Shown here in pieces: positions 4,686 to 61,310 of a DNA stretch of 64,000 nucleotides (positions are counted from its first letter, which is position 1; each line of letters begins with the position of its first letter). A program made the translations under genes and the position numbers. The stretch covers positions 12,539,271 through 12,603,270 of the forward strand of contig NC_092397.1 in the NCBI RefSeq assembly GCF_030028105.1, given 5' to 3'. The notes beneath the pieces are model-generated. The model ran no database searches and had not been told where the DNA came from. It saw only the letters and a program-made list of their open reading frames with translations. This stretch comes from Mobula birostris. Lineage: Eukaryota.

Positions 4686-4727
4686 ATGCCGTCGAAGAAG
4701 AAAAAATACAACGCGCGGTTCCCGCCG
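4686..4727 (+). CDS. DRAP1: DRAP1 exon 1 ([14 protein letters not shown])
   Basis: ATG at 4686; donor CCG|gtgagt. Confidence 0.97.
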
Positions 4728-7700: not shown

Positions 7701-10700
7701 TATCAAATATTGATAGAGTGGACGTGGAGCTGGTATTTCCAATAGCGGGAGAGTCTAGGACCGGAGGGCACAGGCGAATGTCCATTTAGAACGGAGATGA
7801 GGAATTTCTTTAGCCGGCGGCGGGGCTGGGGAGTGAATCTGTGGAATTCCTCGCCACATGTGGCTGTGGAGTCCAGGTCATGGGTCTGTCTAAAGCAGAG
7901 CTTGATAGGACAGCGAAAGCCCCACGCGCACACGAGGACGGGCAACACACAGAGTATAAATTATACTCAAATTACGCCAAGGAAACAGAGAGTGAAAACA
8001 GTAGCTAACGGTAATCAGTGTCCACCGTGTCCACAGTCGTCATCACCATAAGGTGCCATGCCCAGTTTGGGCTTTGACTGCCATGGCCCACACACTCCTG
8101 TTTCGGGTCAAGTGGATCAATTCATTGGTATTCATTTCCAGTTCTCTGGCTGCTGTCTCCATCATCATTTGTCTTTGTCTTCCTCTTGCTTTCTTCCCTT
8201 CAATCTTTCCCATAATTACCGTGCATTCTAACTCATCTTTCCTAACCACATGTCCAATGAAGTCGCGCTGCCTTTTCATGATCTCATACGTTATTTCTCT
8301 TTTTGTGTTTGCCCTGTTCATGACATCCTCATTAGATATTCTTTGCATCCTCCTCAAAAACCACATCTCTGCTGCTTCAATTCGTTTCCTCATGTTACTA
8401 GATATTGTCCAACATTCTGAGCCATATAACATAACTGGATAAACGTAACATTTCAGTACCCTGAGGCGGGTTGTCATGCCTAGTTGAGTGTTGGTCAGCA
8501 TGCTCTTCATTCTCGTAAAGGTGTCTTTCGCCATCCCTATTCTTCTTTTGATGTCCATGTCACACCTGCCATCTGATGTCACCCAGCTTCCTAAGTATCA
8601 AAAGTTCTGTGCTTATTTTATGTCTTCTCCGTTTATTCTCAGCCTGCAGATAGGATTCTCCTTCTTTTTGGATATCACCATACATTCTCTCTTTTTGCAA
8701 TTGATAGATAGACCCATTTTTGCACTTTCTTCAACAATTATATGAATTTTGTAGTTCTTCCTCTGTACTTGCAATTAACACAGTGCCATCCGCAATTCTG
8801 AAATTATTGATGTTTTCACCGCCAACTTTGATTCCCAAGATGTCTCTTTTTTTGTAATATTGTTTCGCTGTACACATTAAATAAATCAGGGGAGAAAACA
8901 CACCCGTGCCTAACGCCTCACTTGATTTTCATAAACTGACTCACTTCTCCATCTATTCTCACAGTGGCAGTTTGTTCCCAGTACAGATTTTTGAATAGGC
9001 AGAGGTCTTTCGAATCTAGATCTCGAGTTTCCTGTAATATTTCACATAACTTACTGTGCTTCACTTCATCAAATGCTTTTGTGTAGTCGATAAAACAAAC
9101 AAACAAATCTTTTTGCACTTGAATAGCTCATTCTGATAGTATCCTTAACATCAAAATCGTGTTTCTTTTACCTTTGTCTTTCACAAAACCACATTGATCT
9201 TTACCTATTTCAGCTTGTATCTTACTTTTAGCTCGTCATCATTGTTGTACCTGGGAGAAAATTCAGTTTTGAATCCAGTAACGCATCTAGACCAGATGGC
9301 CACCATATTAGATGCCTCCTAAAGTAACCTGAGCTTATGTTCCTGACCTTCTGCTGCTGTGGCGTATCCATTTCAAGGGTGGGCATGTTGCACGTTCAAC
9401 CACAGTTGTAATGTGTGGTTATTTGAGTTCCTGTCATCTCCCTGTCAGCCTGAACCCAGTCTGGCCATCCCCCTCTGACCTCTCTCACTGACGAGGCATT
9501 TTCGCCCGCAGAACTGCCGCTCACTGGATGTTACGATGCGCCCCCGACAGGGCACCAGGTGTCCGACTTCCAATGTTTCAGGAGCCCTCCTCCGACCTCG
9601 ACTCGGGCCACTTTATGAGGTACTTCGTGTATCTAATAAAGCGGCCCCTGAGTGTAAGTCTGGGTCCTCTGCAGCTGTAACCCATTCTCATCAAGTTCAA
9701 CGGGTCGTGCGTTCAGAGGTGCTCTTCTGCACACCACCGTTGTAACGCGTGGTTATTTGAGTTACTGTCAGCTTGAACTGGTCTGGCCGTTCTCGAATCA
9801 AACCAAATCAAGTTTAACTATCATTTAAACCATACATAGATACAGCTGATCGAGACAGCGTTCCTGTGGGGCCAAGGTGCAAAGCATTCAAAATGACAAG
9901 CAACTACTCAAAAATAGCGAGTAACGTAATTCAAAATAGCAAGCAAAGACGCATATTCACTCAAAAAAAACGATATATGAGGTCATTCTTACCCTCGGTC
10001 ACTGGGCTCTATAATGAGTCAACCTATAGACAGGGAAGTGGTGACCCCTCCTGTTAGGCTGTTTGAGGTAACTTATTTTTTATTCTTTCTTCTCTTCAAA
10101 TATTTGTATATCTGTACACTTGTAATGCTACTGTGACATTGTAATTTCCTTTGGGATCAACAAAGTATATCTATCTACCCCATGTTCTTAGAGTAAAATT
10201 GTCTTTGGATCGTAAAATAACAAATTTTACAAACAAAAGAGCACCTTTGGTTGGCCCCCGAGAAGCCGCTGCATTCACTTTCTCCCCAACCTCTCTCATT
10301 AACATTTTCATCCTCAGAACTGCCGCTCACTGATTTTTTTTTCCCCTGCACCATTCTCTGTAAATTCTCAAGTCTGTTGTGCATGAAAATCCCAGGAGGT
10401 CAGCAACTTCTGAGATACTCAAACCACCCCATCTGGCACCAACAACGAAAGTCGCATAGATCACATTTCTTCCCCCATTCTGATGTTCGGTCTGAACAAC
10501 AACTGAACCTCTTGACCACGTTGGCGTGCTTTTATGTGCAAGTGTTCCTAATCAAGTGGCCCACTGAGTATGCATTGTAATTATAAATACAAGCAAGCAA
10601 AAAATGGACCAATGCAGGGGTTCCCAACCTTTCCTGTGGCATGGACCGGTCGAGTGGTCCGTGAACCCCTGTGCTGACGTGATGAACAAAATGAGACAGA

Positions 10701-13700
10701 TACAATTAAGAGTCAAGTCAAGTTTATTGTCATTTAACTATATACACGTATACCGTCAAACGAAACAACGTTTCTCTGAATCACAGTAGTACAATAACTT
10801 GGGAAAGTAAGAATTAAATCTTCAAATGAATTAGGTATAAATTAAATATTGTAAGGTATGGAACAGATTAACCAGTGATACTTTGAATGCGATGCGGCAG
10901 GGAGTTCAGAAGCCTGATGGCCTGAGGGAAGAAACTGTTTCCCATCCTGACCGTTCTTGTCTTTATGCATCGGAGTCTCCTGCCTGATGGTAGGAAGTCA
11001 AAGAGGATGCTGGATGGATGGGTGGGATCCTTGATAATACTAAGGGCCTTGCGTACACAGCGCTCCTGATAAATGCCCCGATGGATGGTAGGGAGACCCC
11101 TACGATCCTCTCGGCCGTTCTCACAGTCCTTTGTAGGGGCTTCCGGTCCGATGCTCGGCTGCTCCCAGACCAGATGGAGACGCAGCTTGTCAGGACGCTC
11201 TCAATGGTGCTCCTGGAAAATGTGGTTAAGGTGGGTGAGGGTGGGGAGAGCCTCATTGCCTCAAACTCCTCAGGAAGTGGAGACGCTGCTGTGTCGCCTT
11301 TTCAGGGAGGTGATATTCAGGGACTAGGTGAGGTTGCCCGTGATATGATCTCCCAGGAACTTGGTGCACTTAATTCTCTGTACGGAGGGGGCCATGCATT
11401 CGCGGAAGGAGGTGGTTCGTCTGCACCTACCCGAAACCCACAAAGAGTGCAGATTCGAGACGGTACCACCGGGAAAGGGTTGCCAGAGGGCTGATGGGCT
11501 CAGGAGTCTGACAGCAGTGGGGAAGAAGGTGTTCTTCACTCTGGTCTATCAGGCTTTCAGACTGCTGCATCTTCTCCCAGAAGGTAGAGAAGAAGGAATG
11601 GCCAGGGCGGTGGGCATCCTCAGTGACCCTGTTAGGCCTTCCCAAGGCGGAGAGTCTGGGAATCGTCATCTCAATGATCGGCTCGTCCGACCGCAAGTCC
11701 CTGAGGACATCATCAGGGTCTCTCCTCCGCCCGTTCGAGGCATTTATCAGGAGCACTGCGTAGGCAGGGCCCTCAGCATTACCAGTGATCCCTCCCATCC
11801 TTCCAGCCATCTCTCTGACCCCCTGCCATCAGGCAGGAGGCACATGAACTGTCAGGGTGGGAAGCAGCTTCTTCCCCCGGGCTGCAAGACGACTGAACTC
11901 CCTGCCACCACCCAGGTCTCGTCACGAAGCGCCCGTAGCTTCAACTGTTTTCTATTCAACTCGTATCCGAAGTGCACCATATTAATTGTCGTAATATTGC
12001 TCTACGTGTTATGTGTGCGAGTTATACGTACTGTGTTGTGCACCTTGGTCCGGAGGAATGTCTCGTTGGCGGTATACGTGGGTACGGTTGAGTGACATTA
12101 ACTCTGAATAAGCGATCAGCCGTTTGCAACTGGGGTAGACCGTAGAGTGATACACCACAGGCCCTTCAGCCCACTCTCTGATACTGTACTCACTAAGTTT
12201 GCAATCAAATGCCCAACCAAACTAATCCCTTCTGCCTAGACAATGTCTACATCCTGTGCACTCGCGTGCCTGAGCACCCCTGTTGTATCTGCTTCCTCTG
12301 TCGCCCCGTGAAGTGCATTCCAAGCCCCCCCCCCGCCGTTCTCCGTATAAATCTCCTTTGAACCTGCCTCCTCGTGCCTCAAGTTGATCTCTGTCTCGAA
12401 TTAGACTTTTCAACCCAGAGGGAGAAAAGATACTGGCTGACTTTTCTTTGTATGCGCTTTATAATCTTCTAAGCCTCTTCTCACAACCTGGGGTCCCTTG
12501 CTTAACGGTATTGGTCCACCACGCACAAAGGTTTAGGAGCCCCCCCCCCCCCCGATCGGGCTGTCCCTCAGTCTCTGCTACTTGGCTACCCACGATTGTA
12601 TTGCCAAGTTTCCATCAAACTCAATATATAAGTTTGCTGATGACACAACAATTGTAGGCCGTATCTCGGGTAATGATGAGTTTGAGTACAGAGAGGAAAT
12701 TAAGAACCTGGTGGCATGGTGCGAAGACAATAACCTATCCCTCAACGTCAGCAAGACGAAGGAATTGGTTGTTGACTTCAGAAGGAGTAGCGGACCGCAC
12801 GACCCCATTTACATCGGTGGTGCGCAAGTGGAACAGGTCAAAAGCTTTAAGTTCCTCGGGGTCAATATCACAAATGACCTGACTTGATCCAACCAAGCAG
12901 AGTCCACGGCCAAGAAGGCCCACCAGCACCTTTACTTCCTGAGAAAACTAAAGAAATTTGGCCTGTCCCCTAAAACCCTCACTAATTTTTATAGATGCAC
13001 TGTAGAAAGCATTCTTCTAGAGTGCATCACAACCTGGTATGGAAGTTCTCCTGTCCAAGACCGGAAGAAGCTGCAGAAGATCGTGAGCACGGCACAGCAC
13101 ATCACACAAACCAATCTTCCGTCCTTGGACTCACTTTACACCGCACGCTGTCGGAGCAGTGCTGCCAGGATAATCAAGGACACGACCCACCCAGCCAGCA
13201 CACTTTTCGTCCCTCTTCCCTCCGGGAGAAGGCTCAGGAGCTTGAAGACTCGTACGGCCAGATTTGGGAACAGCTTCTTTCCAACTGTGATAAGACTGCT
13301 GAATGGATCCTGACCCGGATCTGGGCCGTACCCTCCAAATATCCGGACCTGCCTCTCGGTTTTTTTTGCACTACCTTACTTTCCCTGTTCTATTTTCTAC
13401 TTATGATTTATAATTTAAATTTTTAATATTTAGTAATTTTAACTATTTTTAATATTTAGTATTTGTAATCTAGGGAGCGGGAAGCGCAGAATCAAATATC
13501 GCTGTGATGATTGTACGTTCTAGTACCAATTGTTTGGCGACAATAAAGTATAAAGTACCTCAAGTTGTTCCACCCTCTCCCCCAGCACATGCCCTCTAAT
13601 CCAGGCAGCATCCTGGTTAGCCTCTCCAAAGCCTCGACAACTTCCCTGCAATGGGACGGACAGCGAGGCGTGCAGCGACGCGCTCGAGACGCTGGGGGAG

Positions 13701-16700
13701 CTTAGCAGGTTGGGCAGCATCCGTAGAGAGGAATAAAGAGTCGACGTTTCGGGCCGAGGCTGGGAGGTGATAGGTGGAAACAATAAAGGGTTGAAGAAGG
13801 AGGAATCTGACAGGAGAGGAGGGTGGGCAACGGGAGAAAGGGAAGGAGGTGGGGAACCAGAGAGAAGTGGTGGGCAGGTGAGGACGAGAGGGGGAGTAAA
13901 ACAGGAGCCGGAATCGTTAAAGGTCATTTATTCTGACTGACTCTTTGTTTCCCTCCGTAGACACTGCCTGATTTGCTGAGTTCCTCCATCAGCAAGCAGT
14001 GATGATCTATGGGGGGGAATAAAGAGTTAAAAGCTTTCGGCCAAGCCCCTTTGTCGGGACTCTGAAAGAGCCCATCGATGCTGTCGCTCCACATTTCCAG
14101 TGTCTGCAGAGCCTCCTTGTGTCCCTTGCTTGTACTGACCTTGTTGGTCCATTCTGTTCCTGTTGTAGGCCAGGATAAAGAAGATCATGCAGACGGACGA
14201 AGAGATCGGAAAAGTGGCCGCCGCTGTCCCAGTGATCATCTGTATCCTCCAGAAGCCGTCCCTGACGAGCCCCACAGGGCGGGGAGAAAGGGCTGCTTGG
14301 GCCATGGTTCTGGGAATTCCTCTCCCATCACCCCAGTTATCCAGTTGTCCCAGTGACACCCGATGGGCTGAGTGGCCTAATTCTGCTCCAATGTCTTGTG
14401 GCCATCCAAAGATTCCTGCAGAGAAGGCCAGTCAGCACATCTGCCCTTCTCTATCCTTCTCTCTAGCCAGCCTGTGCCATCAAACCCCATCCCTTAATAC
14501 TTCTTGCAGTGGAGCGAATGTTTCCCAGCGTGGGGGAGTGTAGGACCAGAGGGCACAGCCTCAGAATAGGAAGAGATGGAGGGATTTCTTTACCCGGAGG
14601 CTGGTGAATTGGTGGAATTCATTGCCACAGGCAGCACAGATTCCGGCAAAGGGCCATTCGGCCCACCTGACCCATTCTGTCCTTCACTAAGACTCTAGCC
14701 AGTCTGTGCCATAAAACCTTCATCCCTGAAAACCTTTTGTAACCAGATGTCCCTCACTGATGTGCTACCATTATCACATCTGTTAGGTCGGGGTTGCTTC
14801 ATGTTTGTTTTCCTTGCTTGTAATCCAGAGGCCGTCGCTGGTAACTTAGAAACAGCTTGGGTGGCTAATGAGATGATTCAGCTCCGTTTGGATTGGTTAC
14901 GACCACTATTAAAATAAGGCTTTTTGTTGGAAATCAAAATGGATAAACACAGAATGGAACAGTCTCTTCAGCCCCCGATTTTTGTGCCAACCTTTTAACC
15001 TAATCCAGCTTCAATCCAACCCTCTCTCCCGCCCCCCATACGCCTTCATTTTTATTTCATCCATTGGCAGGGGTGCTCCATGCACCCACCACTCCAGGTT
15101 TCAAAATATATATGTATTACCCCTGACATCCCCCCCCCCCCCCGTACTTCCCTCCAATCATCTTAACATTAGGATTTTCGACCTGAGGAAAGAGTCTGTG
15201 ACTCTTGTTGTCTTGTACACCTCTGTCAAGTCACCTGAAATCCAGGCAGCGTACTGGTAAGTGTCTTCACCTTCTTTAAAGCTTCCACATCTTTCTGATA
15301 GTGAAGGGTTTCAAAACTGAGCGCTGTACTCCCAAAGGTGGTCTGGCCAGGGTTTTTAATGGAGCCGCAGCGTTACCCTTGCAGCTCTTGAACTGAACCC
15401 CCCAGCCCCCTGACTCATGCAGACCAACTCACCCTATGCATTCGCAACCTCCCAGTCAACTTTGAAGGACGTGGACCCCGCCCTCCCTCTGTTGCCCCAC
15501 ACTGCTAAGAACCTTATCGTTAACTTTTTGTACTCTGACTTCCAAAAGTGAATCACCTCACACGTTTCCAGTTTGACCTCCGAACTGGGGGAAAACTACC
15601 CGCAAGGATCCACGAACACGAACTGGCTGTCCCAACGGCTTGACCAACTCTCCCTCGTCTCTACCCGTGAAGGTCGAGAAGGGCACAAACTCGGCTGGGC
15701 ATCGTGGCACAAGCGAACACACGGCATGCAAGAGAACCCCTAGGAGCATGGTTTTCCGCACCTTTCATATCCCTTTTGCCAATCAACTGTCCAGCTCTAG
15801 GCTCCATCCCTCCCCCTCCCGTCTTCTCCTATCATTTTGGATCTCCCCCTCTCCCTCCCACTTTCAGATCTCTTACTAGCTTTTCTTTCAGTTAGTCCTG
15901 ACGAAGGGTCTCGGCCTGAAACGTCGACTGTACCTCTTCCTGGAGATGCTGCCTGGCCTGCTGCGTTCACCAGCAACTTTTATGTGTGTTGCTTGAAACT
16001 CCAGCATCTGCAGATTTCCTCGTGTTTGAGATAGACCTTCATCCCATTTTTAAGCCAATGTGGGCAAATTTCCAGACCACAATGCACAGAGTTCACCACA
16101 CAACCAATCAGCAATGAGACCCCTCCCTACCTCACAAATAAGTGTCCGTAATGATGACCAATCAGCTGATTGATAAGTACCTGAAGGCCAAGCATTTGGA
16201 GGACACATCGCAAGTGAGGCACCAGAAGGACCTTCTGTAGTGATCAATAAACCAATTGTTTGGAATCAAATGACCTTGCCTGGTGTCTCAGGGCTGGGTG
16301 TGTCTGCACCCACACCACTCCTCTGCGAGCTGTCCCACGCCCCTCCCGCGGTGCTCCACTCTCGCCACTCCCAACGTCCTTTGCTCCCGCCAGATTTACA
16401 CACTGGCTCTCCGCTCCACGTCGACAAGTACAGTCCTGTGCAAAGATCTAGCTATATAGATGGGCAAACGTAGAGGGGTATGGGCCTGAAACGGGCAGAT
16501 AGGAACAGCTTAGGTGGGGTGGCACAGACCAGCTGGGCTGAAGGGCTGTTGCCCCACTGTATAACTCTGCGATTGGGGTCCTTCAGGAGCAGAATGGAGC
16601 GATACGTGTGGTTCCTCTGGCTTTGTCATGAACTTACTTGGCACAGTCCTGCAACTCTGGCTGGTGCCCGGGTAGCGAACAGAACCGGCCTCCTCCCACT

Positions 16701-19700
16701 CCAGGGACGTGGGAGACACACACAAAGAATGCTTCCCAACAGACCACAACTGTCAGCTCCAGACAGGGGCACAAGATAGAATGGCGGGGTGGGGGTGGGA
16801 GGCTGTTTGGGAGGTTGCTGATGCCAAAATAGCTTGACGGTGCCAGGAGCCCCACGCCACCTCGGGCGGTCCGCGCCCAGGGAGTGAGGGCGTCGAGCAG
16901 ATTTCCTTAACGTGCCGCTCAGCTCGGGCGTTGGAACTGTTCCTGGACTCCCTCCTGACGAAGGCCTGCCACGTGACCCAGTCGCGGAACGCCAAGACCA
17001 TGACCACCTCGCACCTGTAAGTAAGCGGCCCGCACGTTTCCCGTTCGGCCTGGCTTCCCCCAACCCCCCCCCCCCCCGCCCACTTAGCCTTCTCTTCGGG
17101 CTCCCAGAGCAGGAGGGCACCTCTCCCTTGTTTTGACCTATTGACTATTGAAAGGCCCAGGTAGAGCAGACATGGAGAGGATGTTGCCTATAGTGAGGGA
17201 GTCTGGGATCAGGGGGCACAGCCTCAGAATGGAGGGACACCCCTTTGGAAAAGAGATGAGGAGAAATTTCTTTAGCCGGAGACTGGTGAATCTTGGGTTT
17301 TCATTGCCACAGATGGCTGTGGAGGCCAAGTCATTGGATATATTTAAAGCAGAGGTTGATAGGTTCTTGATTAATCAGGGCATCAAAGGTTACGGGGAGA
17401 AGGCAGGAGAATGGGGTTGGGAGGGATAATAAATCAGCCATGATGGAATGGAGGAGCAGACTCGATAGACTGAATGGCCTAATTCTCCTCCTATGTCTTA
17501 TGATTGGAGCATGGAAGGGAGGAGAGAGGTTGGGCAGTTGCTTCAGGGACAGAAGGTTTGAATTCCAACTCAGAAGGGGAGTTTGAATTCAGTTAATTTG
17601 TGAGCACCCATCTGGTTCTTGAGGAGAGAAATTGGCCATCTTTAGCCAATCAGACCCTCCTGTGCACTCTGATTGACCTGTCACAGCAGCCAATGAATAC
17701 AGGACTGGCCAGTGGCTCCCGCCTCCCACCCAGACAAGGTCTGCACCGGTTGGGGATGGGGTGGGGAGGAGGAGGTGGCAGCGGTATGGAATCCGGTGGC
17801 TCCCGCGGATGCGCAAGGCAGGGCTCTGCGCTGACGTCTCGGCCCGTTCCCCCCGCCAGGAAGCAGTGCATCGAGCTGGAGCAGCAGTTCGACTTCCTCA
17901 AGGACCTGGTGGCCACCGTGCCGGACATGCAGGGCGAGAACGAGGATGTCCACATGGAAGGGGACAAGGTGCCTCGCAGGTGAGTCCCGCCTGATGGTCC
18001 ACCGGGGCGCAGGCTTGAGAGGGCTCCCCTCCATTGCAGAGTTGCGCCTCGGCGTAGGGTGAGGGGCAGTCTGGTAGGCTTCCTCCTCCGTTCCATTCCC
18101 CACCCTCCCAGCCGTGTGTGAGTTGACGTCCCACTGGTGTTCCACTCAGATATAAATTTATGAATCACACGCACATCAAGACATAGGGTGAAATGTGTCG
18201 TTTGCGTTAACAACCAACCCAACCCAAGGACGTGCTGGGGGGTGGGGGCAGCCCGCAGTTGGTATACTGCGCCAACGTAGCATACCCACAATGTTCGGCC
18301 AGAGTAGCAACAATGGCAAAACAGGCCCCTTTGCGAACGCCCCCCCCCCAACACGATACAGCCTCTCCCCTCCCCATACACATCCCCTTGCTCTCATGCT
18401 CTCTTCTCATTCCTGCCACCAGAGAGGAGGTACAGGAGCCAGAAGACTCAAATTCTCAAGAAGAGCTTCTTCCCCTCCGCCATCAGACTTCTGAACGCCC
18501 ATCGAGCCAGGTCACGGACACAGCCCCACTCTGTCTGCCCTTGTACCATCTGCTCTCGGGATGAGGCTTTCCATTCCAGAACAACTGTGGTGTCCGCCTC
18601 CTCCAAAGAGAGGGGCTTCCCTTCCCCCACCATCACCGCTGCCCTCAACCGCACCTCTTCCGCTTCGCGCGCGCCTGCTGCTCACCCCATCCTCCCGCCA
18701 CCCTGCCCGAGATACGGTTCCTCTTGCCCTCCCCTACCACCCCACCAGCCTCCGCGTCCAGCACGTAATTCTCCGTAACTTCCACCATCAAGCACCTCTT
18801 CCCTCCCCTCCCACTTCCCGCTTTCCATAGGGATCGCTCCCCGCGCGGCTCGCTTGTCCATTCGTCCCCCCCCACCGATCTCCCTCCTGGCACTAATCCC
18901 TGCAAGCGGAACGAGTGCCACACCTGCCCCTTCACCCCCTCCCTCATCCAGGGCCCCAAACAGTCCTTCCCGGTGAGGCGACACTTCACCTGCGAGTCTG
19001 TTGGGGTAATTTACTGTGTTCGGTGCTGTCAGTGTGTCCTCCTGTATATCGGTGAGACCCGATGTATATTGGGAGACCTCTTTGCCGAGTATCTACTCTC
19101 CGTCCGCCAGGACTAGCGGGATCTCCCAGTGCCCACCAATTCCAATTCTACTTTCCATTCCGATATGTCCATCCATAGCCTCCTCTACTGTCGTGATGAG
19201 GCCACACTCAAGTTGGAGGAACAACACCTCATATTCCGTTTGGGTAGCCTCCAACCTGATGGCATGAACATCGACTTCTCTAACTTCTGGTAATTGCACC
19301 CTCCCTCTTCTTCACCATTTCCCATTACAGTTCCCCTCTCTCACCTTATCTGCATACCGGCCCATCACCTCCCTGTGGTGCTCCTCCCCCTCCCTTTCTT
19401 CAATGGCCTTCTGTCCTCGCCTGTCAGATTCCCCTTCATAGAACATAGAAAGCTTACAGCACAATACAGGCCCTTCAGCCCCACAATGCTGTGCTGGACA
19501 TGTCCTCACTTTAGAAATGACCCAGGGTTACCCATAGCCCTCTGTTTCTCTGAGCTCCATGCACCCGTCCAGGAGTCTCTTAAAAGACCCTATTGTATCA
19601 GCCTCCACCACCGCTGCCGGCAGCCCATTCCACACACTCGCCACTATCTGCGTAAAAAAACTTACCCCTGACGTCTCCTCTGTACCTACTTCCAAGCACC

Positions 19701-22700
19701 TTAAAACTGTGCCCCCTTCTCTTCTGGTTACCTGCCTATCAGCTCCCCCGGTGCCCCTCCTCCTTCCCTTTCTCCCACGGTCCACTCTCCTCTCCTATCA
19801 AATTCCTCCTCCTTTTCCATCCATCACCTCCCAGCTCTCACTTCATCCCCCCCCCCCCCAAGCTACCTTCCCTCCCCTTCGCCTGGTCCCTCATATCACC
19901 TGTGAACTTGTACTCCTTCCCCTCCCCCTCCGACCTTCTTACTCAGGCATCCTCCCCCTTCCTTTGCAGCCCTGATGTGGGGCGATGGCCCGAAATGTCG
20001 CCTGTTTATTCCCCTGCGTTGATGCTGCCTGACCTGCTGAGTTCCTCCAGCATTTTGCTTGTGTTGCTCCGGATTTCCAGCAACCCTGCAGACAGCTGTA
20101 TCCAGAGCAGAAATGATGGGAGTCCTTCTCCAGGCCTTTATCGCTTCCACCAGTCTTTACTTCACCCTCCTCCTCCTGTCCCTATCACCCACCACCTGGT
20201 ACTTCTTCCTCCTCACCCCCCACCTTCTTATCCTGACTTCTCATCTTCCTCTCCAGTCCTGACGAAGGGCCTCAGCCTCAACCTGCGACTGTTTACTCTT
20301 TTCCATAGACCTGCTGAGTTCCTCCAGCGTTTTCTGTACTTTACTATAATTCATCGTTACTTTTGTGTATATTGCAGTGTCCTGCTGTCTCACAACAACT
20401 AATTTCACAACGTGTGCCAGTGATACTAAACCTGACTCGGATTCTTATCCGGAAAGCCGAGGCTGGAGGGCCAGGAGCTGTTCTGAAAACGCTGAGCGTC
20501 CAGCCGCCAGGCTCCTGTACCTCCTCCCAGACGACACGCGCAAGGTGCTGGCGGACCTCAGCCGGTTCGACAGCGTCTGCCGAGGCGAGCGGACAGTCGG
20601 CGTTCCGGGCCGCGATCCTTCATCGGGCCCGAGACGTCGACCGGTTTATCCTTCCCCTCGGAGGCTGCCTGACCTGCTGAGCCCCACCGGCATTTTGTGG
20701 ATCATTTCCGGATCTCCAACGTCTGCAGAACCTCTTCTGTTCCGGTAGTAATGAGAAGAGGGCACGTCCCTGGAGGATGGATGCCAACGACTTGAGGCGC
20801 TGTCTCGTGAAGATGTCCTCGATGGTAGGGGAGGTGGGGGGCGCGGGAGGGTGTGCCGGTGATGGATCTGGCTGAGGCGGCAACCCCCTGCAGCCCCTGT
20901 CGATCCCGTGCTCTGGAGCCTCCGTACCAGATGGTGATGTGACCAGGCAGAATGCTCTCCTCGGTACATCCGTTTAAAGAGAAACAGCTACGGTCTTTGA
21001 CCTCTCAGATTCAGGTTTATTTTATCGCATGTGCATCGAAACGTACGGCCAGACGCATCGTTCTTCATTAGTAAATAGCCCACCTGAGAGTGCGGTGGGG
21101 GTGAGTCGGGGGGTCACCAATGCAGCACCCCCACAACGTTTGAAGTTTCACAGTACATTTAATCTCAGGGTATACAGCCAGAAATTCGTCCTCTTCACGG
21201 ACACCCACGAAACAAAGACACCCTGTAAAACGTTACCGGGGGGGGGGGGACACCTCCCCTTCCCTTCGCACAAGCAGACCCCCACCCCCAGCTGCACCAG
21301 CAGAAGCAACAATCCACCTCCCCCCGCCCCCCCACCCCCCCGGGGGCGCCAGGCGAGTCTGCGGCAGAAGCCCCAGAGTACCACAAACCAGCACTTCGGT
21401 ATCACAGGCAGGCGCGCTCCGTCGCCAACGAGAGAGGGAGGTCCTTGCCGTCACAACGAGAGCCGGAGACCAGCAGCGCACAGTTCAGATGTCACAGTGT
21501 CTTACCCCCGTTGGTTCTGCGAGCACCCTCCGGATCAGGGACTGTCTCCCCGCTGCCTGACCGGTCCAGGGTCCACAGAACTGGGCGCTGAAGGAGGGTG
21601 GGACTAGCCACCATCTGCTGAGGTGGGCTACTGCACAGGGTCAAAGTCGTTGTCATCGTGGCTGCCCCTCGAGGTCGAGGATGATGGTCTTCGTTCTGTA
21701 CAGAGCGAAGACGCCTGTGCGTGTCTTTGTTTAACGTGTACTTGATGTTGCACTCCAAGAAGCACTCCAAGACCAACTGATTCCAACAGCATGGAAGCCA
21801 CGACAATTGGAGCTGATGGATTTGTTGCAGCCTTCATCCGCCTTCACAGCCGTTGAGTTCGAAGTGACTTCGTCTGCCTGTTCCACCGCTGAGGTCTTGG
21901 TTGGATTGTTCTTTGTTGGACCTCACCTTCGACCTTACCGCCATGGGTGACCCTACCAGGAGCATAGCTCCAGACGGCATTGCTCTCAGGATCACAGGAC
22001 CACGCAAGCTTCTCCACCACGACAAGGTGACAATCCACAGAGAAGACAGGATGAAAGAAAGCTGCAGAGAGTTCTAAAATTAGTCAGCACTATCACTGGA
22101 ACCAGCCTCCATAGTATCCTAGACGTCTACAAGGAGCGGTGCCTCAAGATGGCGTCACATGTCATTAGGGCTCCCTCCATCACCCAGGATGTGCCATCTT
22201 CTCATTGCTACCATCAGGAAGGAGCTGCTGCAAAGTTAGCAAGTTTCCCAACACGTGCCGGTGATATTTAACCTGACTGTTGATTGTGATGGGAAGGAGT
22301 GCTGTGTGCTCATCTCCCTGCCGTTTCAGGGGTCGGAAGCCCGGAATGGGTCGCAGGAACGCCAACGGAGGGGCCGGAGCGAAAGGGAAGGACAAGAAGC
22401 AATCCAGCACGGAATCGGAGCAGGAGGTGAGCAGTCCCGACTGCGGCTTCTTCCCCCCTTCCTCCCCTCTCCACAGACGCTGCCTGACCTGCCTCCCTCC
22501 CTCCCAGCACTTTGTGTGCGTTGATCCCAGTTCCCAGCCCCTGCAGTCCCCGTTGTGCGAGTGTCCGTCCGTGGCGCCCCGCGACCCAATCCCATTCCGG
22601 TCTGACGCACTCCGGCCCGGCCTGACCCCCGCCAATCCGATCGGCTCCACTCCACTCCAGAAACTGACTCGGGAGACTGGGGGCTTTGCCCGGGACAGTA

Positions 22701-25700
22701 TCAGTGCTCATCGTGGCCAGTGGTGTGGCTGCATGAGGAGACGCTCTTGGAATAATAGTGGAGGCAAATCGCACGGTCACTGTGTCCCTCTTGAGAGTGT
22801 GACCCCTACTCCCACATATCTCTGATCCCCAGCACACACATACAACACGACTGCCGGGCTCGATCAACTGGGGAAGTAGGCCAAGGGTCTGGATCGGAGG
22901 GTAAGTCTGCCTTAGCTACGGCGACTGGCTGGGCAGACAGTGGGGTTGTGACGTCCGCGGTGGTCTGATGCTCGCCGTCGGTCTGCGGCCTGCCACTCCG
23001 ATGACCTGCCTGGCAGAACGGCCGATCCGCTGGGCGCCGGCCGGGGCCGGCGGGTGGGGGAGAAACGAGGCCCGCTCTCAGCCCAGCCCCTCTGCTTGCT
23101 CCCTCCCACAGGACGAGTCGGAGGACAGCGAGACGGATGAGGAGGAAGCCTCCCGCTCCAGCGTCGACAAGGCCGGGGACCAGATCCGGAGGTTAGTGGT
23201 TGCCCTGACCTGCCTTCACTTCCCCCCCCACCTCACCTCCAAAAGACCAGGCAAGCCCTAGGCTCCGTCTCGGGCCTGTGCCACCTTGGCAGATTCTGCT
23301 TCCCGCTGACAGCCTCTACCCTGGGAGGGAGAGCAGCAGCAGGCTGCTCGTTTAATTACGTGGGGGGGGGGGGGTGCGTAAGGCGTTAACGTCGGCGATC
23401 CCGGGTTCAATTCCCGCCATTGTCTGCGAGTACATTCTCCCCGGGACCCTGTGGGTTTCCTCCCATGATCCAAAGGGCAGGGTTAGTGAGTTGTGGGCAG
23501 GCTTCGTCGACACTGGAAGTGTGGCGGCACTCGCGGGCTGCCCTCAGCGCTTCCTCGTGTTGGTCGCTGGTGCAGATGGCGCATTCCGCTTTGCGGTTCG
23601 GTGGTCCGACACGCACGTGACAGATAAAACTGATTTATCTAATTCAGAGTCTCTTAAGGAACAGCACAGGAGCCGGCCATTCGGCCCACAACGTTGTGCT
23701 GCTCCAGCTGAAATGTAAATTCAAAACCTAAACACTCGTCCCTCCCACTTACACAATATCTCCCCCCTTCCCCACCTTCTTACTCTGCCTTCTCGTCATT
23801 CTTTCCAGTCCTGATGAAGGGTCTCAGCCCAAAATGTCGACCGTTTACTCTTTTCCTCAGATGCTGCCTGACCTGCTGAGTTCCTCCAGCGTTTTGTGTG
23901 TGTTGCTTAGATTTCCAGCATCTGCAGATTTTCTCTTGTTTGTGACAGTGACGAACTATTGCAATTTTCCCCAAATAAAAGAAAACCAAAGCTACGCACA
24001 CACGACACGCTGCAGGAACACGGCAGTTTGCCCTTCTCAGCAAGTCTGTAATCTCTTGTCCAAAACCACCTTACACCCTGTCAGGTTGTCCCTAATATCC
24101 TCAATAGATACACACCTGAAATAACACCACTATGTCCTGAAGTGGGAAGGAGAACAGCCAGAGGTCGTGGTACATATTGGTACCAACGACATAGGTAGGA
24201 AAATCCTGAAAGCAGACCACAGGGAGTTAGGAAGGAAGCTGAGAAGCAGGACCACAAAGGTTGTAATCTCGGGATTACTGCCTGTGCCACGTGACAGTGA
24301 GTATAGGAATAGAGTGAGGTAGAGGATAAATATGTGGCTGAGGGATTGGAGCAGGGATTCAGATTTCTTGATCATTGGGACCTCTTCTGGGGCAGGCGTG
24401 ACCTGTACAAAAAGCATGGGTTGCACTTGAATCCCAGGGGGACCAATATCCTGGCGGGGAGGTTTGCTAAGGCTATTGGGGAGAGTTTAAACTAGGATTG
24501 CTGGGGGGTTTGGAACCGAACTGAAGAGACAAAGGAAGAGGCGGTTCGCTTGCAAATAGAGAAAGCTTGTAGACAGTGTGAAAGGGAGGATAGGCAGGTG
24601 ATAGAGAAGGGACGTGCTCAGACCGATGGTCTGAGATGTGTCTATTTTAATGCGAGGAGTATTATGAACAAAACAGATGAGCTTGGAGTGTGGATCAGTT
24701 CTTGGAGCTATGATGTTGCGGCCATTACAGAGACTTGGATGGCTCAGGGGCAGGATTGGTTACTTCGAGTACCAGGCTTTAGGTGTTTCACAAAGGACAG
24801 GGAGGGAGGCAAAAGAGGTGGGGGCGTGGCACTGTTGATCAGAGATAGTGTTACAGCTGCAGAAAAGGAGGAAGTCATAGAGGGATTGTCTACAGAGTCT
24901 CTGTGGGTGGAAGTTAGAAACAGGAAGGGATCAATAACTCTACTGGGTGCTTTTTATAGACCACACAATAGTAACAGGGACATCAAGGAGCAGATAGGGA
25001 GACAGATTCTGGAAAGGTGTAATAACAACAGGGTTGTTGTGGGAGATTTTAATTTCCCAATATCGATTGGCATGTCCCTAGAGCGAGAGGGGTTTAGATG
25101 AGGTGGAGTTTGTTAGGTGTGTTCAGGAAGGTTTCTTGAAGATAAGTAGATAAGCCTACAAGAGGAGAGGCTGTACTTGATCAGGTATTGGGAAATAACC
25201 TGGTCAGGTGTCAGACTTCTCAGTGGAAGAGTATTTTGGAGATAGTGATCACAATTCTACCTCCTTTACCATAGAATTGGAGAGGGATAGGAACAGACAA
25301 GTTAGGAAAGCGTTTAATTGGAGTAAGGGGAAATATGAGGCTATCAGGCAGGAACTTGGAAGCATAAATTGGGAGCAGATGTTCTCAGGGAAATGTACGG
25401 CAGAAATGTGGCAAATGTTCAGGGGATATTTGCATGGAGTTCTGCGTAGGTACGTTCCAATGAGACGGAGAAAGAATGATATAGTACAGGAACTGTGGTG
25501 TACAAAGGCAGTTGTAAATCTAGTCAGAATGAAAAGAAAAACCTTAATGAAAGGTTCAAAAAACTAGGTAATGATAGAGATCTAGAAGATTATAAGGCTA
25601 GCAGAAAGGAGCTTAAGAAAGAAATAAGAAAAGCCAGAAGGGGCCATGAGAAGGCCTTGGTGGACAGGATTAAGGAAAACCCTGGGGCATTCTACAAGTA

Positions 25701-28700: not shown

Positions 28701-30497
28701 TGCTGGATTTTAGAAGAATGGAGTTGGGGGAGGAGAGATTTTTATTGAAACCTATAAAATATTGAAAGGTCTAGATGGAATGGATATGGAGAGGATATTT
28801 CCTGTAGTGCAGGGGTCCCCAACCTTTTCTGCACTGCGGACCGGTTTAATATTGACAATATTCTTGTGGACCGGCCGACCCGGGGGTTGGGGTTGCCAAC
28901 GTACAAGAGTAGCAGTCAAATACGTTGTGTTTACCCCGAGAAAGACTACAATGACCATGAAGCCTTGCGCGGGCACCAGTGCGCATGCGTAAATATGTGC
29001 CGATTTTTTAAAAAATCGTTTTTGGCGATTCTGTTCGGTGGTGGGGGGTGTTAATCACGACCGGAATATAGGTGATAAATGGCTAATACACTCAATTTTG
29101 TTTCTAAAAGGCTTTATCTAACAAATTTAATATTAAACACACGGCACATATTTTCCTCGCATGAATATAGTGATAAGTCAATTATCAGGGGAGCTTGAAG
29201 TAAGTGTTGAACAAACTTCCAGTAGAAGTGGTAGAGGGAGGTTCGATATTATCACTTAAATTTAAAGTGGACAGCTATATGGACAGGAAAGGAATGGAGG
29301 GTTATGGGCTGAGTGCAGGTCGGTGGGACGAGGTGAGGGTAGCGTTCAGCACGGACTAGAAGAGCAGAGATGGCCTGTTTCCATGCCGTAATTGTTATAT
29401 GGTTATATAAGTCATTTATTATAGCATAATAACGTTTTAAGATACGTTTGGATATTAAACACACAGCGCATATTTTCCTCGTATGAACATATAAAATCAT
29501 TGCAACGCACTAATATTGCTGAATCAGTGGGAGCCCTGGGCTGAATACTTGTTTTCTGCAACAACACGGTCCTATTGAGGGGTGATGGGAGACAGCGATA
29601 CTCGAAGGGGGTTCCTTATGTCCAGTCTATTCCGCAATTTAGTTTCAGTTGCATTCATTGCAGAGGTATGTTGGAAATGGAAGCAACGTTTTCAGTGCTT
29701 TCCTGACTATCTCAGGATATTCAGCCTTGACTTTGATCCAGAATGCCGGTAGGGATGTTATGTCAAACATAGTTTTCAGCCCGCCGTCATTTGCAAGCTC
29801 GAGGAGGTGATCTTCTTCCCGCACTGACATGGATGACGCGTGTGTAATGACCTCGTGTGCGTTCAAGTTCAACAGTGGGCGTGACAGGGAATGAGGAAAG
29901 GTGCAGCTGACTCCTATCGCCAAATCATATCGTTTCCTCGCGGCCCGGTAGCGCATGCCTTGCGGCCCGGTGGTTGGGGACCGCTGCTATAGTGGGGTGC
30001 CTAGGACCAGAGGCCACAGTCGCAGAATAGAGGGGTGTCCCTTTAGAATGGAAATGAGGAAAAATCTCTTGAGCCAGGGAGTGACAAATCTGTGGAACTC
30101 ATTGCCTCCGGCGGCCGTGGAGGGGGAGTCATTTGATACTTTTTAAGCGGAGGCTGTTAGGTTCTTCATTAGTAAAAGGCATCAAAGGTTACAAGGAGAA
30201 TGGGATTGGGATGGATAGTAAATCAGCCATAGTGGAGCAGACTCGATGGGCCGAACCTCCTTTGACTTGCGGTCTAGCACCTCTGCGTGTATGTGCAGTA
30301 GACGTGACCTTGAAGGCGCCCAGCAGGCCTTAACGCGCTTTTCCATTGTCTGTTGCAGCCCCGAACCCGTCTTCAGCAGCCCCCCACCAGTGCTGCCCAC
30401 CCCCATGTTTGCACAGGCAACGAACACCCTGTCGATGCCCGCTCCTGTCCTGATGACCAGCAGTCAAGATGGCGAGGATGAAGATTACGACTCTTAG
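4686..30497 (+). CDS. DRAP1: Dr1-associated corepressor (NC2 alpha), 7 exons, 645 nt, 214 aa: join(4686..4727,14169..14241,16923..17016,17860..17979,22330..22426,23112..23191,30359..30497)
   Basis: Spliced translation [87 protein letters not shown]...EDEDYDS is the DRAP1 histone fold; all splice phases are consistent. Confidence 0.98.
4728..5120 (+). repeat. Degenerate minisatellite made of the exon 1/intron 1 junction
   Basis: gccg|gtgagtcc repeated with GT at 4820, 4883 and 5000; variant accg|gtgggt at 5091. Confidence 0.85.
5495..6291 (+). mobile_element. CR1 LINE, 5'-truncated, young
   Basis: ORF 5601-6200 is the CR1 RT C-terminus; tail ctatgtttctatg; highly similar to the 3' end of the element at 57585-61137. 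Confidence 0.95.
7150..7580 (-). mobile_element. CR1 3' fragment
   Basis: [20 protein letters not shown] peptide plus CR1 3' UTR. Confidence 0.8.
8039..9245 (-). mobile_element. RTE-clade LINE, 5'-truncated, frameshifted RT
   Basis: [58 protein letters not shown]; (GAT)n-like tail. Confidence 0.9.
9290..10570 (-). mobile_element. Tc1/mariner-derived non-autonomous element, fragmented by other inserts
   Basis: Terminal gtggcccactgagt matches the TIR of the copies at 31399 and 34135; internal segments are the reverse complement of those copies. Confidence 0.55.
10700..12100. mobile_element. Cluster of Rex1/Babar LINE 3' fragments in both orientations
   Basis: [20 protein letters not shown] (-), [12 protein letters not shown] (-), [21 protein letters not shown] (+). 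Confidence 0.75.
12577..13557 (+). mobile_element. Rex1/Babar LINE, 5'-truncated
   Basis: [63 protein letters not shown]; tail aataaagtataaagta. Confidence 0.9.
14169..14241 (+). CDS. DRAP1: DRAP1 exon 2 ([24 protein letters not shown])
   Basis: Acceptor ttgtag; donor T|gtatcctc. Confidence 0.97.
15770..16027 (+). mobile_element. Penelope-like element terminal (pLTR) fragment
   Basis: Pyrimidine tract, hammerhead motif, then gatgctgcctggcctgctg...ccagcatctgcaga; same end type follows the GIY-YIG remnant at 18545. Confidence 0.75.
15894..15929 (+). ncRNA. Minimal type-I hammerhead ribozyme motif
   Basis: AGUC-CUGACGA-AGG(gucucgg)CCU-GAAA-C-GUC|GACU: intact core, stem I AGUC/GACU, palindromic ACGU stem III; predicted cleavage after C15925. 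Confidence 0.75.
16923..17016 (+). CDS. DRAP1: DRAP1 exon 3 ([32 protein letters not shown])
   Basis: Acceptor ctcag; donor CT|gtaagt. Confidence 0.97.
17140..17505 (+). mobile_element. CR1 3' fragment
   Basis: [21 protein letters not shown] peptide plus 3' UTR. Confidence 0.8.
17860..17979 (+). CDS. DRAP1: DRAP1 exon 4 ([39 protein letters not shown])
   Basis: Acceptor gccag; donor AG|gtgagt. Confidence 0.97.
18545..20100 (+). mobile_element. Penelope-like retroelement remnant (GIY-YIG endonuclease plus 3' end), interrupted by a CR1 tail at ~19437-19710 (-)
   Basis: Translation [49 protein letters not shown] fits the PLE GIY-YIG domain; degenerate hammerhead at ~19967-20003. Confidence 0.85.
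21645..22035 (-). mobile_element. Short RTE-derived non-autonomous element (RTE 5' UTR motif plus RTE-type tail)
   Basis: Minus strand caccttgtcgtggtggagaagcttgcgt...gagcaatgccgt...agggtcacccatggcgg resembles the BovB/Expander 5' motif. Confidence 0.55.
22330..22426 (+). CDS. DRAP1: DRAP1 exon 5 ([32 protein letters not shown])
   Basis: Acceptor tttcag; donor GAG|gtgagc. Confidence 0.95.
23112..23191 (+). CDS. DRAP1: DRAP1 exon 6 ([26 protein letters not shown])
   Basis: Acceptor cacag; donor AG|gttagt; phase matches exon 7. Confidence 0.9.
23375..23640 (+). mobile_element. V-SINE-like element
   Basis: gggttcaattcccg B-box-like motif plus gtgggtttcctccca core; its 3' part recurs inverted at ~18150-18290. 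Confidence 0.55.
24125..27485 (+). mobile_element. Near full-length CR1 LINE (ORF1 esterase remnant, ORF2 EN plus RT), frameshifted
   Basis: [11 protein letters not shown] (ORF1), YFNARSI..ITETW and GDSDHN (EN), [11 protein letters not shown] and FADDTK (RT); 3' tail. Confidence 0.95.
28810..29986 (-). mobile_element. hAT (Charlie/Buster-type) internally deleted DNA transposon nested in a CR1 fragment
   Basis: TIRs CAGGGGTCCCCAACC and GGTTGGGGACCGCTG; 8-bp TSD ctgtagtg (28802-28809) / ctatagtg (29987-29994); dimerisation-domain remnant [28 protein letters not shown]. Confidence 0.9.
30359..30497 (+). CDS. DRAP1: DRAP1 exon 7 ([17 protein letters not shown]...DGEDEDYDS*)
   Basis: Acceptor ttgcag; conserved EDYDS C-terminus; TAG stop. 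Confidence 0.95.
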
Positions 30498-31929: not shown

Positions 31930-32614
31930 TTAAGACTCACAACACGCTGGAGGAACTCAGCAGGTTGGGCTGCATCCGTGGCAACGTTTCGGGCCGGAGC
32001 CCTTCCTCAGGACTGTAGAGGGAAGGGGCAGAGGCCCTATGAAGAAGGGGAGGGTGGGAAGGAGGAGGCTGGTAGGTTCCAGGTGAAAAACCAGTAAGGG
32101 GAAAGATAAAGGGGTGGGGGAGGGGATAGGCAGGAAAGGCGAAGAAGGAATAGGGGAAAACACAATGGGTAGTAGAAGGAGGTGGAACCATGAGGGAGGT
32201 GATAGGCAGCTCAGGGAGGGGGCAGAGTGAAACAAGGATAAAGGAAGGGAGGGGAAAGGAATTACCGGAAGTTGGAGAATTCTATGTTCATACCAAGGGA
32301 CTGGAGACTACCTAGACGGTATTCATACCAAGGGGCTATTCCTTCTTCACCTTTCCTGCCTATCACCTCCCTGCATCCCCTCCCCCACCCCTTTATCTTT
32401 CCCCTTACTGGTTTTTCACCTGGAACCTACCAGCCTTCTCCTTCCCATCCTCCCCCCACCTGCTTTATAGGGCCTCTGCCCCTTCCCTCTTCAATCCTGA
32501 CGAAGGGTTCCGGCCCGAAACGTCGACTCATCGTTTCCACGGATGCTGCCCGACCTGCTGAGTTCCTCCAGCGTGTTGTGAGTGTTGCTTTGACCCCATC
32601 TGAGTATTTTGTAT
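31930..32614. mobile_element. Penelope-like element as an inverted pair of termini with 9-bp TSD
   Basis: 31936-32160 is the near reverse complement of ~32335-32585; TSD TTACAGCAA at 31921-31929 and 32615-32623; hammerhead cores in both arms. Confidence 0.8.
32493..32528 (+). ncRNA. Minimal hammerhead ribozyme motif (core intact, one stem I mismatch)
   Basis: AAUC-CUGACGA-A-GGG(uuccgg)CCC-GAAA-C-GUC|GACU. Confidence 0.65.
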
Positions 32615-32993
32615 TTACAGCAAATAAAGTTGATCCTTGCTACTGTCTTTCAAACACATTAACTAACCAATATGAAAGGTGATTTTACTATTAATAATTT
32701 ATGAGCACTTTTAATATCTCATAGATAGTAGTAGTAGAATTAGGCCATTCAGCCCATCGAGTCTGCTCCGCCATTCCATCAGGGCTGATTTATTAACCCT
32801 CTCAACCCCATTCTCCTGACTGTCTTCTCAGCACTGGAGAAGGGTCTCCGCCCGAAACGCCGCCTGTTTATTCGTTTTCATGGATGTTGAGTTTCTCCAG
32901 GGTTTTGGGTATGTTGCGTTGCTTTGGATTTCCTGCGTATGCAACATTTCCCATATTTGCGCTGATGGGAATATAGGAAGACGGGCGATGTTT

Positions 32994-33088: not shown

Positions 33089-33355
33089 ATGGCCGCGTTC
33101 GGGCTGCGCTTCGCAATGGGCCCGGCTCTGCTGCTGGTGGGGTTGGTGTTTGGGGCGGCGGCGGCGGCGGACATGAAGGTGCAGGACGCGCTGGAGGCGG
33201 CGGCAACGCCCCCCTTGCTGGGCAGCCTGTACGACGTACGCGTCGATTCCCCCAAGGTGGTGAAAGCGACCAGGGTGGCCGTGAAGGCCTTCAACCGCAG
33301 CTCCAAAGACGTGCATCGCAGCGCGGTGTCGAATGTGATATCGGCCCAAGCACAG
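33089..33355 (+). CDS. Type-2 cystatin exon 1, unit A (89 aa)
   Basis: Signal peptide MAAFGLRFAMGPALLLVGLVFGAAAA, conserved Gly (LLG), helix ATRVAVKAFN, ends SAQAQ with donor CAG|gtggga in phase 0 inside QxVxG. Confidence 0.9.
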
Positions 33356-48320: not shown

Positions 48321-48324
48321 GGAC

Positions 48325-48830
48325 CCATTCAGGGCCCCAAACAGACCTTCCGAGTGAGGCAACATTTCACCTGCACATCTGATGGGGTGAGGGGGTGTCA
48401 TCTATTGTGTCCGGTGCTCCCGATGCAGCCCCCTCTATGGCGGTGAGACCTGCGGCAAAGTGGGGCACCACTTCGTCAAACACCTCCGCTCCAACAGAAC
48501 TTCCCAATGGCCAAACGTTTTAATTCCCATTCCTGTTCCAACATGTCGGTTCATGGCCTCCTCTTGCAGCTACAATGGGGCCATCCTCAGTGGAGGAGCA
48601 ACACCTTATATTCCTTCTGGGTAACCTTGCATAGTTATTGATTTCTCCTTCCTGTTAATAAAAGGAATTCCCTCCCTTTCCCTGTTTTTCTATTTCCCGT
48701 TCTGGGCTCTTACCCCTTCTCACCTTCCTATCACACTGTGCCCTTCCTCCTTCCCTTTCTCCTTTCGTCCTCTCCCCTCTCCTGTCAGATTCCTTCCTCA
48801 CCAGCTCTTTTCGATCCTCATCCACAAAAG
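48325..48830 (+). mobile_element. Penelope-like GIY-YIG remnant
   Basis: QGPKQTFRVRQHFTC..IYCVRCSRC..LYGGET, homologous to 18950-19300. Confidence 0.75.
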
Positions 48831-52160: not shown

Positions 52161-52558
52161 CAACAAGCACCTCTACCACCATACCAGGCAGTGCATTCCG
52201 GGCATGTACTTAGGGTGAAAAACTTACCCCTCAGTTCCCCCTCTCACCTTCAATGCATGCCCTCCAGTATTAGACATTTCTACCCTGGGAAACAGACACT
52301 CCCTTGTCTACTCTATCTATGACTCTCATAACCTTATAAACCTCGATCAGCCTCGGACGCTCCCAGAAAACAACCCAAGGTAATCCAGCCTGTCATGACA
52401 GCCCACGCCCTCCTGGTGAACCTCTTCTGCACCCTCTCCAAATCTCAATATCCTTCCTATGGGGGTAGGGGGCCGACCGGAACTATACGCAATACTCCAG
52501 GTGTGAGTTCTACCAAATCAGTCAATCTAACCGGGAGAATATTTTTGTCACAGTTAGA

Positions 52559-53037
52559 AACAGAGAAAACCTATAGCACAATACAGGCCCTTCGGCCCAC
52601 AATACTGTGCCGAACATGTCCTTACCTTAGAAATTACCTAGGGTTACCCATAGCCCTCTATTTTTCTAAGCTCCACATACCTATCCAGGAGCCTCTTAAA
52701 AGACCTTATCATATCTGGCTCCGCCGCTGTCGCCGGCAGCCCATTCCACGCACTCACCACTCTCTGCGTAAAAAAAACATCTCCTCTGTACCTTTTTCCA
52801 AACATCTTAAAACTGTGGCCTCTCGTTCTAGCCATTTCAGCCCTGGGAAAAAACCGCTGACTATCCACACGATCGATGCCTCTCATCATCTTATACACCT
52901 CTATCAGGTCACCTCTCATCCTCCATCGCTCCAAGGAAAAAAGGTCGAGTTCACTCAACCTATTCTCAAAGGCACGCTCCCCAATCCAGGCAACATCCTT
53001 GTAAATCTCCTCTGCACCCTTTCTAGGGTTTCCACAT
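52559..53037 (-). mobile_element. Short CR1 insertion with 8-bp TSD
   Basis: TSD CAGTTAGA at 52551-52558 and 53038-53045; empty sites in paralogous spacers at ~57211 and ~63325. Confidence 0.9.
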
Positions 53038-61137: not shown

Positions 61138-61310
61138 TGAAGAAGTGACTCAGCCCGGAACGACGGCTGTTTATTCCTTTCCATAAATTCTATCCGACCT
61201 GCTCAGTTCCTCCAGAATTTTGCGTGCCTGTGCTGCTTGGTATTTCCTCTGTTTCTCATGTTTGCAATTATCGGACCGGGGCAAGAAGAAGGGGGAATTT
61301 GTAGGTTTTC

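Follow-up and report, generated by a model that had tools for sequence, protein, structure and literature searches.

An intron of a DRAP1-like gene of Mobula birostris carries, in sense orientation, a minimal type-I hammerhead motif that retains all of its core residues. This raises the question whether RNA from the same repeat family could complete the ribozyme and cut the pre-mRNA in a slowly spliced intron, as had been proposed in the original prediction, or whether the motif is a relic of a mobile element. We analysed a window of 64 kb (the whole stretch of DNA, 64,000 nt) around the motif. We consider it likely, with a probability of about 85%, that the motif is the inert terminal-repeat hammerhead of a dead Penelope-like retrotransposon and that it leaves with the spliced intron uncut.

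The intron is intron 2 of the gene (see Table 1). It starts with the 5′ site GTATCCTC at 14242 and ends with AG at 16921-16922; its branch box TTCCTTAAC is at 16903. These signals are directly visible, and a 5′ site of the RTATCCT type combined with a TCCTTAAC-type branch box near the 3′ site points to the U12 class, with C rather than T at position +8 of the 5′ site. The originally predicted location, in sense within a DRAP1 U12 intron, agrees with this reading. The two exons that flank intron 2 correspond to successive segments of the histone-fold profile PF00808 (6-29 and 31-61). The gene is likely DRAP1, the basis being the PF00808 match and N- and C-terminal sequences which we take to be those of DRAP1, rather than a named database match. 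Mouse Drap1 is included in a list of genes with U12 introns (PMC3695530). The distance between the focal motif and the 3′ splice site of intron 2 is about 1 kb. The last exon, at about 30359-30497, places the family copy at 23806 inside the gene, as had been assumed. In intron 1, GTATCCTTAAC at 9139-9150 (+) consists of overlapping U12 donor-like and branch-box-like strings.

The motif comprises 36 nt at 15894-15929 (+), with the sequence that had been quoted. All 12 core residues are present (C3, U4, G5, A6, G8, A9, G12, A13, A14, A15.1, U16.1, and C17), and the predicted cut is between position 15925, which is C17, and position 15926. Stem I has five pairs (four Watson-Crick pairs and one U·G), and stem II has 4 bp and a loop of 4 nt. 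Stem III is represented by the palindrome ACGU at 15921-15924 (positions 15.1-16.1) without a loop, again as described originally. The register of stem II has to be revised: the AGG/CCU pairing proposed originally has a predicted probability of only 0.02 in the isolated motif, versus 0.96 for GGGU/GCCU after an unpaired A, and the latter agrees with the published consensus layout of minimal hammerheads. With this register, pair 10.1-11.1 of the focal motif is G·U.

The published >80% consensus of minimal hammerheads has G10.1-C11.1 at this pair (PMC4209133). Among 16 aligned family pieces, position 11.1 is C in 11, T in three, and G in two. Because at least seven of 56 published representatives, as counted by eye, have G·U at 10.1-11.1 (PMC4209133), such a pair need not kill activity; a limited literature search returned no measurement of the effect of changing G10.1-C11.1. 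The G·U pair makes the focal motif less than pristine and leaves its membership in the class untouched. The Mobula gene model P0004 ends RNVDYTSS and the focal copy reads stop-NVDCTSS at the same place, a weak hint that its T at 11.1 may be derived.

The focal motif satisfies the published RNAmotif descriptor (PMC4209133, Fig. S7; checked by eye). The CUGANGA box, the optional extra base, and the GAAANNUH box are all present, stems I and II are within the limits of 3-7 bp with G·U allowed, and loop 2 is within 3-10 nt. The descriptor used here was similar to the published one and required a stem I of at least 3 bp. It matched once in the 64-kb window and never in 500 dinucleotide shuffles; the CTGANGA box by itself occurs about as often as chance predicts (45 times, versus 42.3 expected). 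A motif search had been suggested as a check, and it succeeded by descriptor but not by Rfam, which gave no match at gathering score across the 64 kb. Within 15700-16100, no Rfam hammerhead match was obtained at E-values up to 10, and the seven weak matches found there are unrelated. Two other CTGACGA boxes were rejected. The one at 14256-14300 (+), 15 nt past the U12 donor, is followed by GAAA and has a 4-bp outer stem; its stem II does not close onto GAAA, and the look-alike is probably due to chance. The one at 16955 falls in the coding part of exon 3.

An nhmmer profile that had been seeded on five copies was run on the window and revealed 20 family pieces, one of them weak (E 0.012). Ten are inside the DRAP1-like gene, seven in sense and three in antisense orientation. 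The original inventory for this gene was thus incomplete: the three sense copies that it named (19967, 20254, and 23806) are confirmed, including their broken cores (Table 1), but it lacked three pieces in antisense and a 3′ half in sense orientation. The pieces nearest to the focal motif are at least 1.8 kb away and are broken or antisense.

Table 1. Features of the DRAP1-like gene and of the repeat family near the focal hammerhead motif (positions refer to the window)
Feature	Position	Strand	Evidence or content
Exons of DRAP1-like gene	4686-4727, 14169-14241, 16923-17016, 17860-17979	+	Sequence reading
Later exons, boundaries approximate	about 22330-22426, 23112-23192, about 30359-30497 (last)	+	Sequence reading
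Intron 2 of DRAP1-like gene, GT-AG, U12-type signals	14242-16922	+	Splice and branch signals, flanking exons
Antisense family piece, intron 1	13676-13759	-	Family profile; complement to focal motif
Antisense family piece, broken core, intron 1	13996-14064	-	Family profile, core alignment
Antisense LINE (CR1-like) fragment adjoining the element's 5′ end	15239-15587	-	blastn, 64-71% to other LINE RT pieces in the window
Element piece with focal motif	15583-16028	+	ORF-like stretch, pyrimidine-rich spacer, hammerhead, terminal-repeat tail
Remnant of a Neptune-like Penelope ORF with the C-terminal part of RT, a CxxC linker, and GIY-YIG	18533-19287	+	Protein comparison
Sense copy, A9 changed, stem I lost (1 bp)	19936-20094 (motif 19967)	+	Family profile, core alignment
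Sense copy, G12/A15.1/U16.1 changed	20233-20336 (motif 20254)	+	Family profile, core alignment
Inverted pair: antisense broken-core copy fused to sense 3′ half, possible GUC site 20638	20527-20736	.	
Sense copy, last intron, G12 changed to A	23777-23942 (motif 23806)	+	Family profile, core alignment
Copy outside the gene, core intact, G-C at 10.1-11.1	31932-32046	-	Family profile, core alignment

Three family copies are preceded by a Penelope-like ORF of which the C-terminal end lies just upstream, as seen from matches to P0001/P0003. The ORF end at 18533-19287 is followed, after about 650 nt, by the copy at 19936, that at 36275-36204 by the copy at 36038, and that at 32375-32265 by the copy at 32046. 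The proteins used for this matching have GIY-YIG or RT similarity under the Pfam cut-offs (for P0001 and P0003, GIY-YIG similarity with E 0.0005 and 0.002). A fragment of a neighbouring element has 55-72% identity to four proteins of Mobula and Hypanus, which makes a ray the likely host. At the family level, the terminal repeat is found downstream of an RT/GIY-YIG ORF via these sister copies. Together with the fit to the descriptor, this position argues for the proposed identity as a Penelope-type minimal type-I hammerhead.

The piece that carries the focal motif is likely the 5′-truncated 3′ end of a Penelope-like element and comprises, in this order, a frameshifted ORF-like stretch (about 15583-15760), the pyrimidine-rich spacer, the hammerhead, and the tail (15930-16028). 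Truncation occurred at about 15583-15587, against the LINE piece; an element ORF start near 15400 is ruled out, as that region belongs to the antisense LINE piece. Judged by eye, the approximately 170 nt of 15583-15760 resemble the C-terminal half of an endonuclease from another clade, with a frameshift. This was not confirmed by five tests: none of seven candidates scored for this stretch, nor did any of 17 in a second scoring; there was no match among 1.84 billion representatives; Pfam gave only a sub-threshold match to DUF6411; and the comparison with Neptune-like endonucleases was at background (222 of 1298 control segments scored as high). Penelope membership of the focal copy thus rests on the motif and the shared tail.

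Several other remnants belong to this context. The inverted pair at 20527-20736 fits the inverted arrangements that have been described for Penelope-like elements (PMC8557442). The copies at 31932-32046 (-) and 32463-32619 (+) are closely similar, have intact cores, and are arranged in inverted, outward-facing orientation around the endonuclease ORF end at 32375-32265. This pair sits between the DRAP1-like gene and a cystatin-like gene and looks like a younger insertion. Three related copies (53374-53492, 61115-61247, and 63670-63805, all +) have GAC for GUC as the cleavage triplet and an AGCC-type stem I arm; they may constitute a variant subfamily or stem from one copy by segmental duplication. 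Another Neptune-like endonuclease remnant is found at 48294-48628 (+), with no family terminal repeat detected after it. The tail patterns had no matches in metagenome, viral, or prokaryote contigs.

Minimal hammerheads have been described in the terminal repeats of Penelope elements; the genomes of coelacanth and Xenopus each contain thousands of them, mostly as single motifs (PMC4209133; for background, see PMC11167929). The focal motif shares with them the type-I topology, CUGANGA with an extra base, the short stem II, GAAA-N-N-U-H, the palindromic 15.2/16.2 without a stem III loop, the U-rich 5′ flank, and the solitary placement at the 3′ end of an element that is truncated. It differs from their consensus by having G·U for G10.1-C11.1 and by being devoid of a tandem partner, and its stem II of 4 bp compares with 7-8 bp in the Schistosoma families. 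Cartilaginous fish are absent from the 56 representatives in Fig. S3 of PMC4209133; the focal motif is one more example of this class, described in 2014, from a fish group that is absent from that list.

Amniote intronic hammerheads (RECK and others; PMC6155905) and the HDV-like CPEB3 ribozyme (PMC10919898) are also in sense orientation within a host intron. These ribozymes fold as monomers and are conserved across species, whereas the focal motif is devoid of stem III and belongs to a repeat with many copies. Non-LTR retrozymes (bioRxiv 10.64898/2026.07.22.740005) likewise have a type-I hammerhead of Penelope origin; they have been reported for one chondrichthyan genome, and about 43% of the Xenopus copies are intronic. 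They consist of tandem units, each with a complete motif, whereas the focal copy is a solo copy, which sets it apart from the retrozymes.

Whether the intactness of the focal copy is surprising was assessed with 14 motif-spanning copies (of the 20 pieces, two half-copies and four tail-only pieces were left out). Over these copies, 22 of 168 core positions (13%) are changed. All 12 core residues are kept in four copies, versus 2.6 expected under even decay. Only the focal copy has a stem I of at least 3 bp in addition to the full core, and it is also the only one of the 14 in which core, stem I, and stem II are found together, which counts against its being a relic. The probability of at least one full survivor among 14 copies is 0.19, 0.40, and 0.61 at 15, 12, and 10% change per site, respectively, as a rough estimate for which the rate was taken from the same 14 copies, subfamilies were mixed, and the seeds favoured recognizable motifs. 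One fully intact copy among 14 is thus unremarkable and compatible with even decay (rough P 0.2-0.6).

A further point against a relic is that the focal copy is 92% identical to the window majority over the 36-nt motif, versus 70% over the tail. The focal tail looks like that of another subfamily, which would explain the contrast; alternatively, selection on the focal motif may be its source. Paired cells make up 74% in the 14-copy alignment versus 21-39% in slid controls, and a compensatory change from U-A to C-G in stem I is found in two copies. Covariation over the 14 copies is not significant (the score was reached by 25 of 500 shuffles), and only three pairs have two-sided changes (54 of 500 shuffles were as high).

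A cut at the focal site needs a second RNA with an intact core and a matching 5′ arm. No copy in the gene brings a working core, with G12 lost at 20254 and 23806, and both A9 and the arm lost at 19967. The partner must therefore come in trans. That the motif cannot close in cis, as stated in the original prediction, is consistent with the sequence: a monomer leaves no space for stem III, and the gene offers no other working core. Of the copies in the window, the one at 31932-32046 (-) would on paper make the best partner in trans, and its 5′ arm is complementary to the focal 3′ arm. This copy is located 1 kb past the end of the gene, upstream of a cystatin-like gene. The two are predicted to form a 9-bp enzyme-substrate complex at -14.4 kcal/mol, which is 5.9 kcal/mol above the separately folded strands. 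With the focal copy as the enzyme, there are 20 possible, loose substrate sites in the pre-mRNA, including the focal site itself; most of them have G·U or a 3-bp stem I, and we do not count them as evidence.

According to nearest-neighbour predictions, the active homodimer (-11.5 kcal/mol) would be about 10 kcal/mol above two folded monomers (-22 kcal/mol) and 19 above the inactive duplex (-30.3 kcal/mol). Stems I and II have a predicted probability of at most 0.01 in contexts of 180-520 nt. Because the folding models omit the core tertiary pairs and are not calibrated on a known cleaving motif, these energies are weak evidence; the misfolds use family-wide residues. The antisense piece at 13676-13759 is made 2.1 kb before the focal motif in the same pre-mRNA. 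Its segment 13739-13758 (-) is complementary to 15910-15929, the 3′ half of the motif, with 19 Watson-Crick pairs and one G·U over 20 nt. Predicted duplexes with motif and tail are at -116 kcal/mol for this piece, -118 kcal/mol for 20527-20628, and -59.7 kcal/mol for the third antisense piece; among 300 control segments the best is at -69.6 and the median at -43.4 kcal/mol, with intramolecular folds ignored in these values. We infer that, with intron 1 still attached, the motif would be blocked by the antisense piece at 13676-13759.

The time available is a further consideration. A monomer of this class was inactive in vitro, and dimers and trimers had low activity (up to 180 min, 10 mM Mg2+); in live elements, the palindrome lets two motifs in tandem share a single stem III, and they cut each other slowly (PMC4209133). 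Transcription proceeds at 3.5-4.1 kb/min (PMC10919898), so that the 3′ splice site would be made about 15 s after the focal motif. The same source cites Fong 2009 for splicing being unaffected by slow intronic ribozymes, and describes the CPEB3 ribozyme, with a half-life of 2-3 min, as one that matters for the host (PMC10919898). A cut within the lifetime of the intron would be unlikely because of local misfolding, the antisense copy upstream, and the weak 9-bp partner recognition. The slower splicing of U12 introns lengthens the cutting window, probably not to hours. Minor-class introns have been reported to be rate-limiting, which counts against the relic interpretation. Cutting by dimers of this class is reportedly also the subject of Lunse, Weinberg, and Breaker (RNA Biol 14:1499). 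Overall, repeat-RNA-dependent cleavage of the DRAP1 pre-mRNA is not supported.

In the reading that we prefer, a dead, 5′-truncated Penelope-like element would have inserted in sense orientation into the U12-type intron and brought its terminal-repeat hammerhead along. The lone copy probably has no partner in cis, its completeness would be the expected tail of decay across many copies, and the motif likely leaves with the intron without being cut. It is unlikely that the motif is competent and is occasionally cut in trans, by family RNA or by a second DRAP1 transcript, too rarely or too late (in the lariat or in retained-intron RNA) to matter. Such cutting would be consistent with the complete core, the 5-bp stem I, the palindromic ACGU, the density of the family in the window, and the in vitro activity of dimers of this class (PMC4209133). 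The copy at 31932-32046 (-), if transcribed, could serve as partner in the 9-bp complex, but the cost of that complex relative to the separate strands argues against it, and only four of the 14 copies have kept their core.

We consider it very unlikely that the motif has been exapted as a switch, in which repeat RNA would pair with the slowly spliced U12 intron, complete a double hammerhead, cut, and lower DRAP1 mRNA upon de-repression of the repeats. Such a role would be in keeping with an intact motif in sense orientation and with the U12 signals of its intron, and there are precedents for intronic ribozymes that tune host mRNA (CPEB3, PMC10919898; amniote hammerheads, PMC6155905), but these are monomer-competent and conserved across species. 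The focal motif, by comparison, keeps the full element tail, has no stem III, and is distant from the 3′ splice site; one survivor is expected by chance, and an antisense complement is located upstream in the same pre-mRNA. Even after a cut in the intron, exon tethering can let splicing survive, as reported second-hand in PMC5126111. Equally improbable is the general form of this idea, in which Penelope-family transcripts would serve as enzymes in trans for intact sense motifs of host introns, with a partner such as 31932-32046 cutting nascent DRAP1 RNA at 15925/15926. If true, the output of a general transcription repressor would be tied to the de-repression of repeats, and many cleavable introns would be expected in genomes that have a family piece every 3 kb. 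A limited search of the open-access literature found no report of a hammerhead at the present locus or of trans cleavage of host RNA by repeat RNA. That the motif is a chance look-alike, unrelated to a ribozyme or an element, might be suspected from the missing Rfam match, the folding of the isolated 36-mer, which is no better than that of shuffles (z -0.37), and the weak covariation. This is largely refuted by the absence of descriptor matches in the shuffles, by the fit to the published descriptor and consensus (PMC4209133), and by the tail, which is shared with copies next to Penelope-like ORF ends.

The locus is a convenient test case: its minor-class intron holds one intact copy, the broken sister copies can serve as internal controls, and the best partner is defined. 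Beyond the gene, cystatin-like exons were recognized by eye at about 33090-33300 (+), 54263-54290 (-), and about 62400-62520 (-), with pyrimidine-rich low-complexity introns. They make up a small cluster of genes, and its duplicated flanks are found near 52500-53500, 57000-57600, and 63200-63800. At about 36700-43800 and 46500-48200 there is a long tract of degenerate tandem repeats; its period is a few tens of bases, and it shows up as repetitive ORFs.
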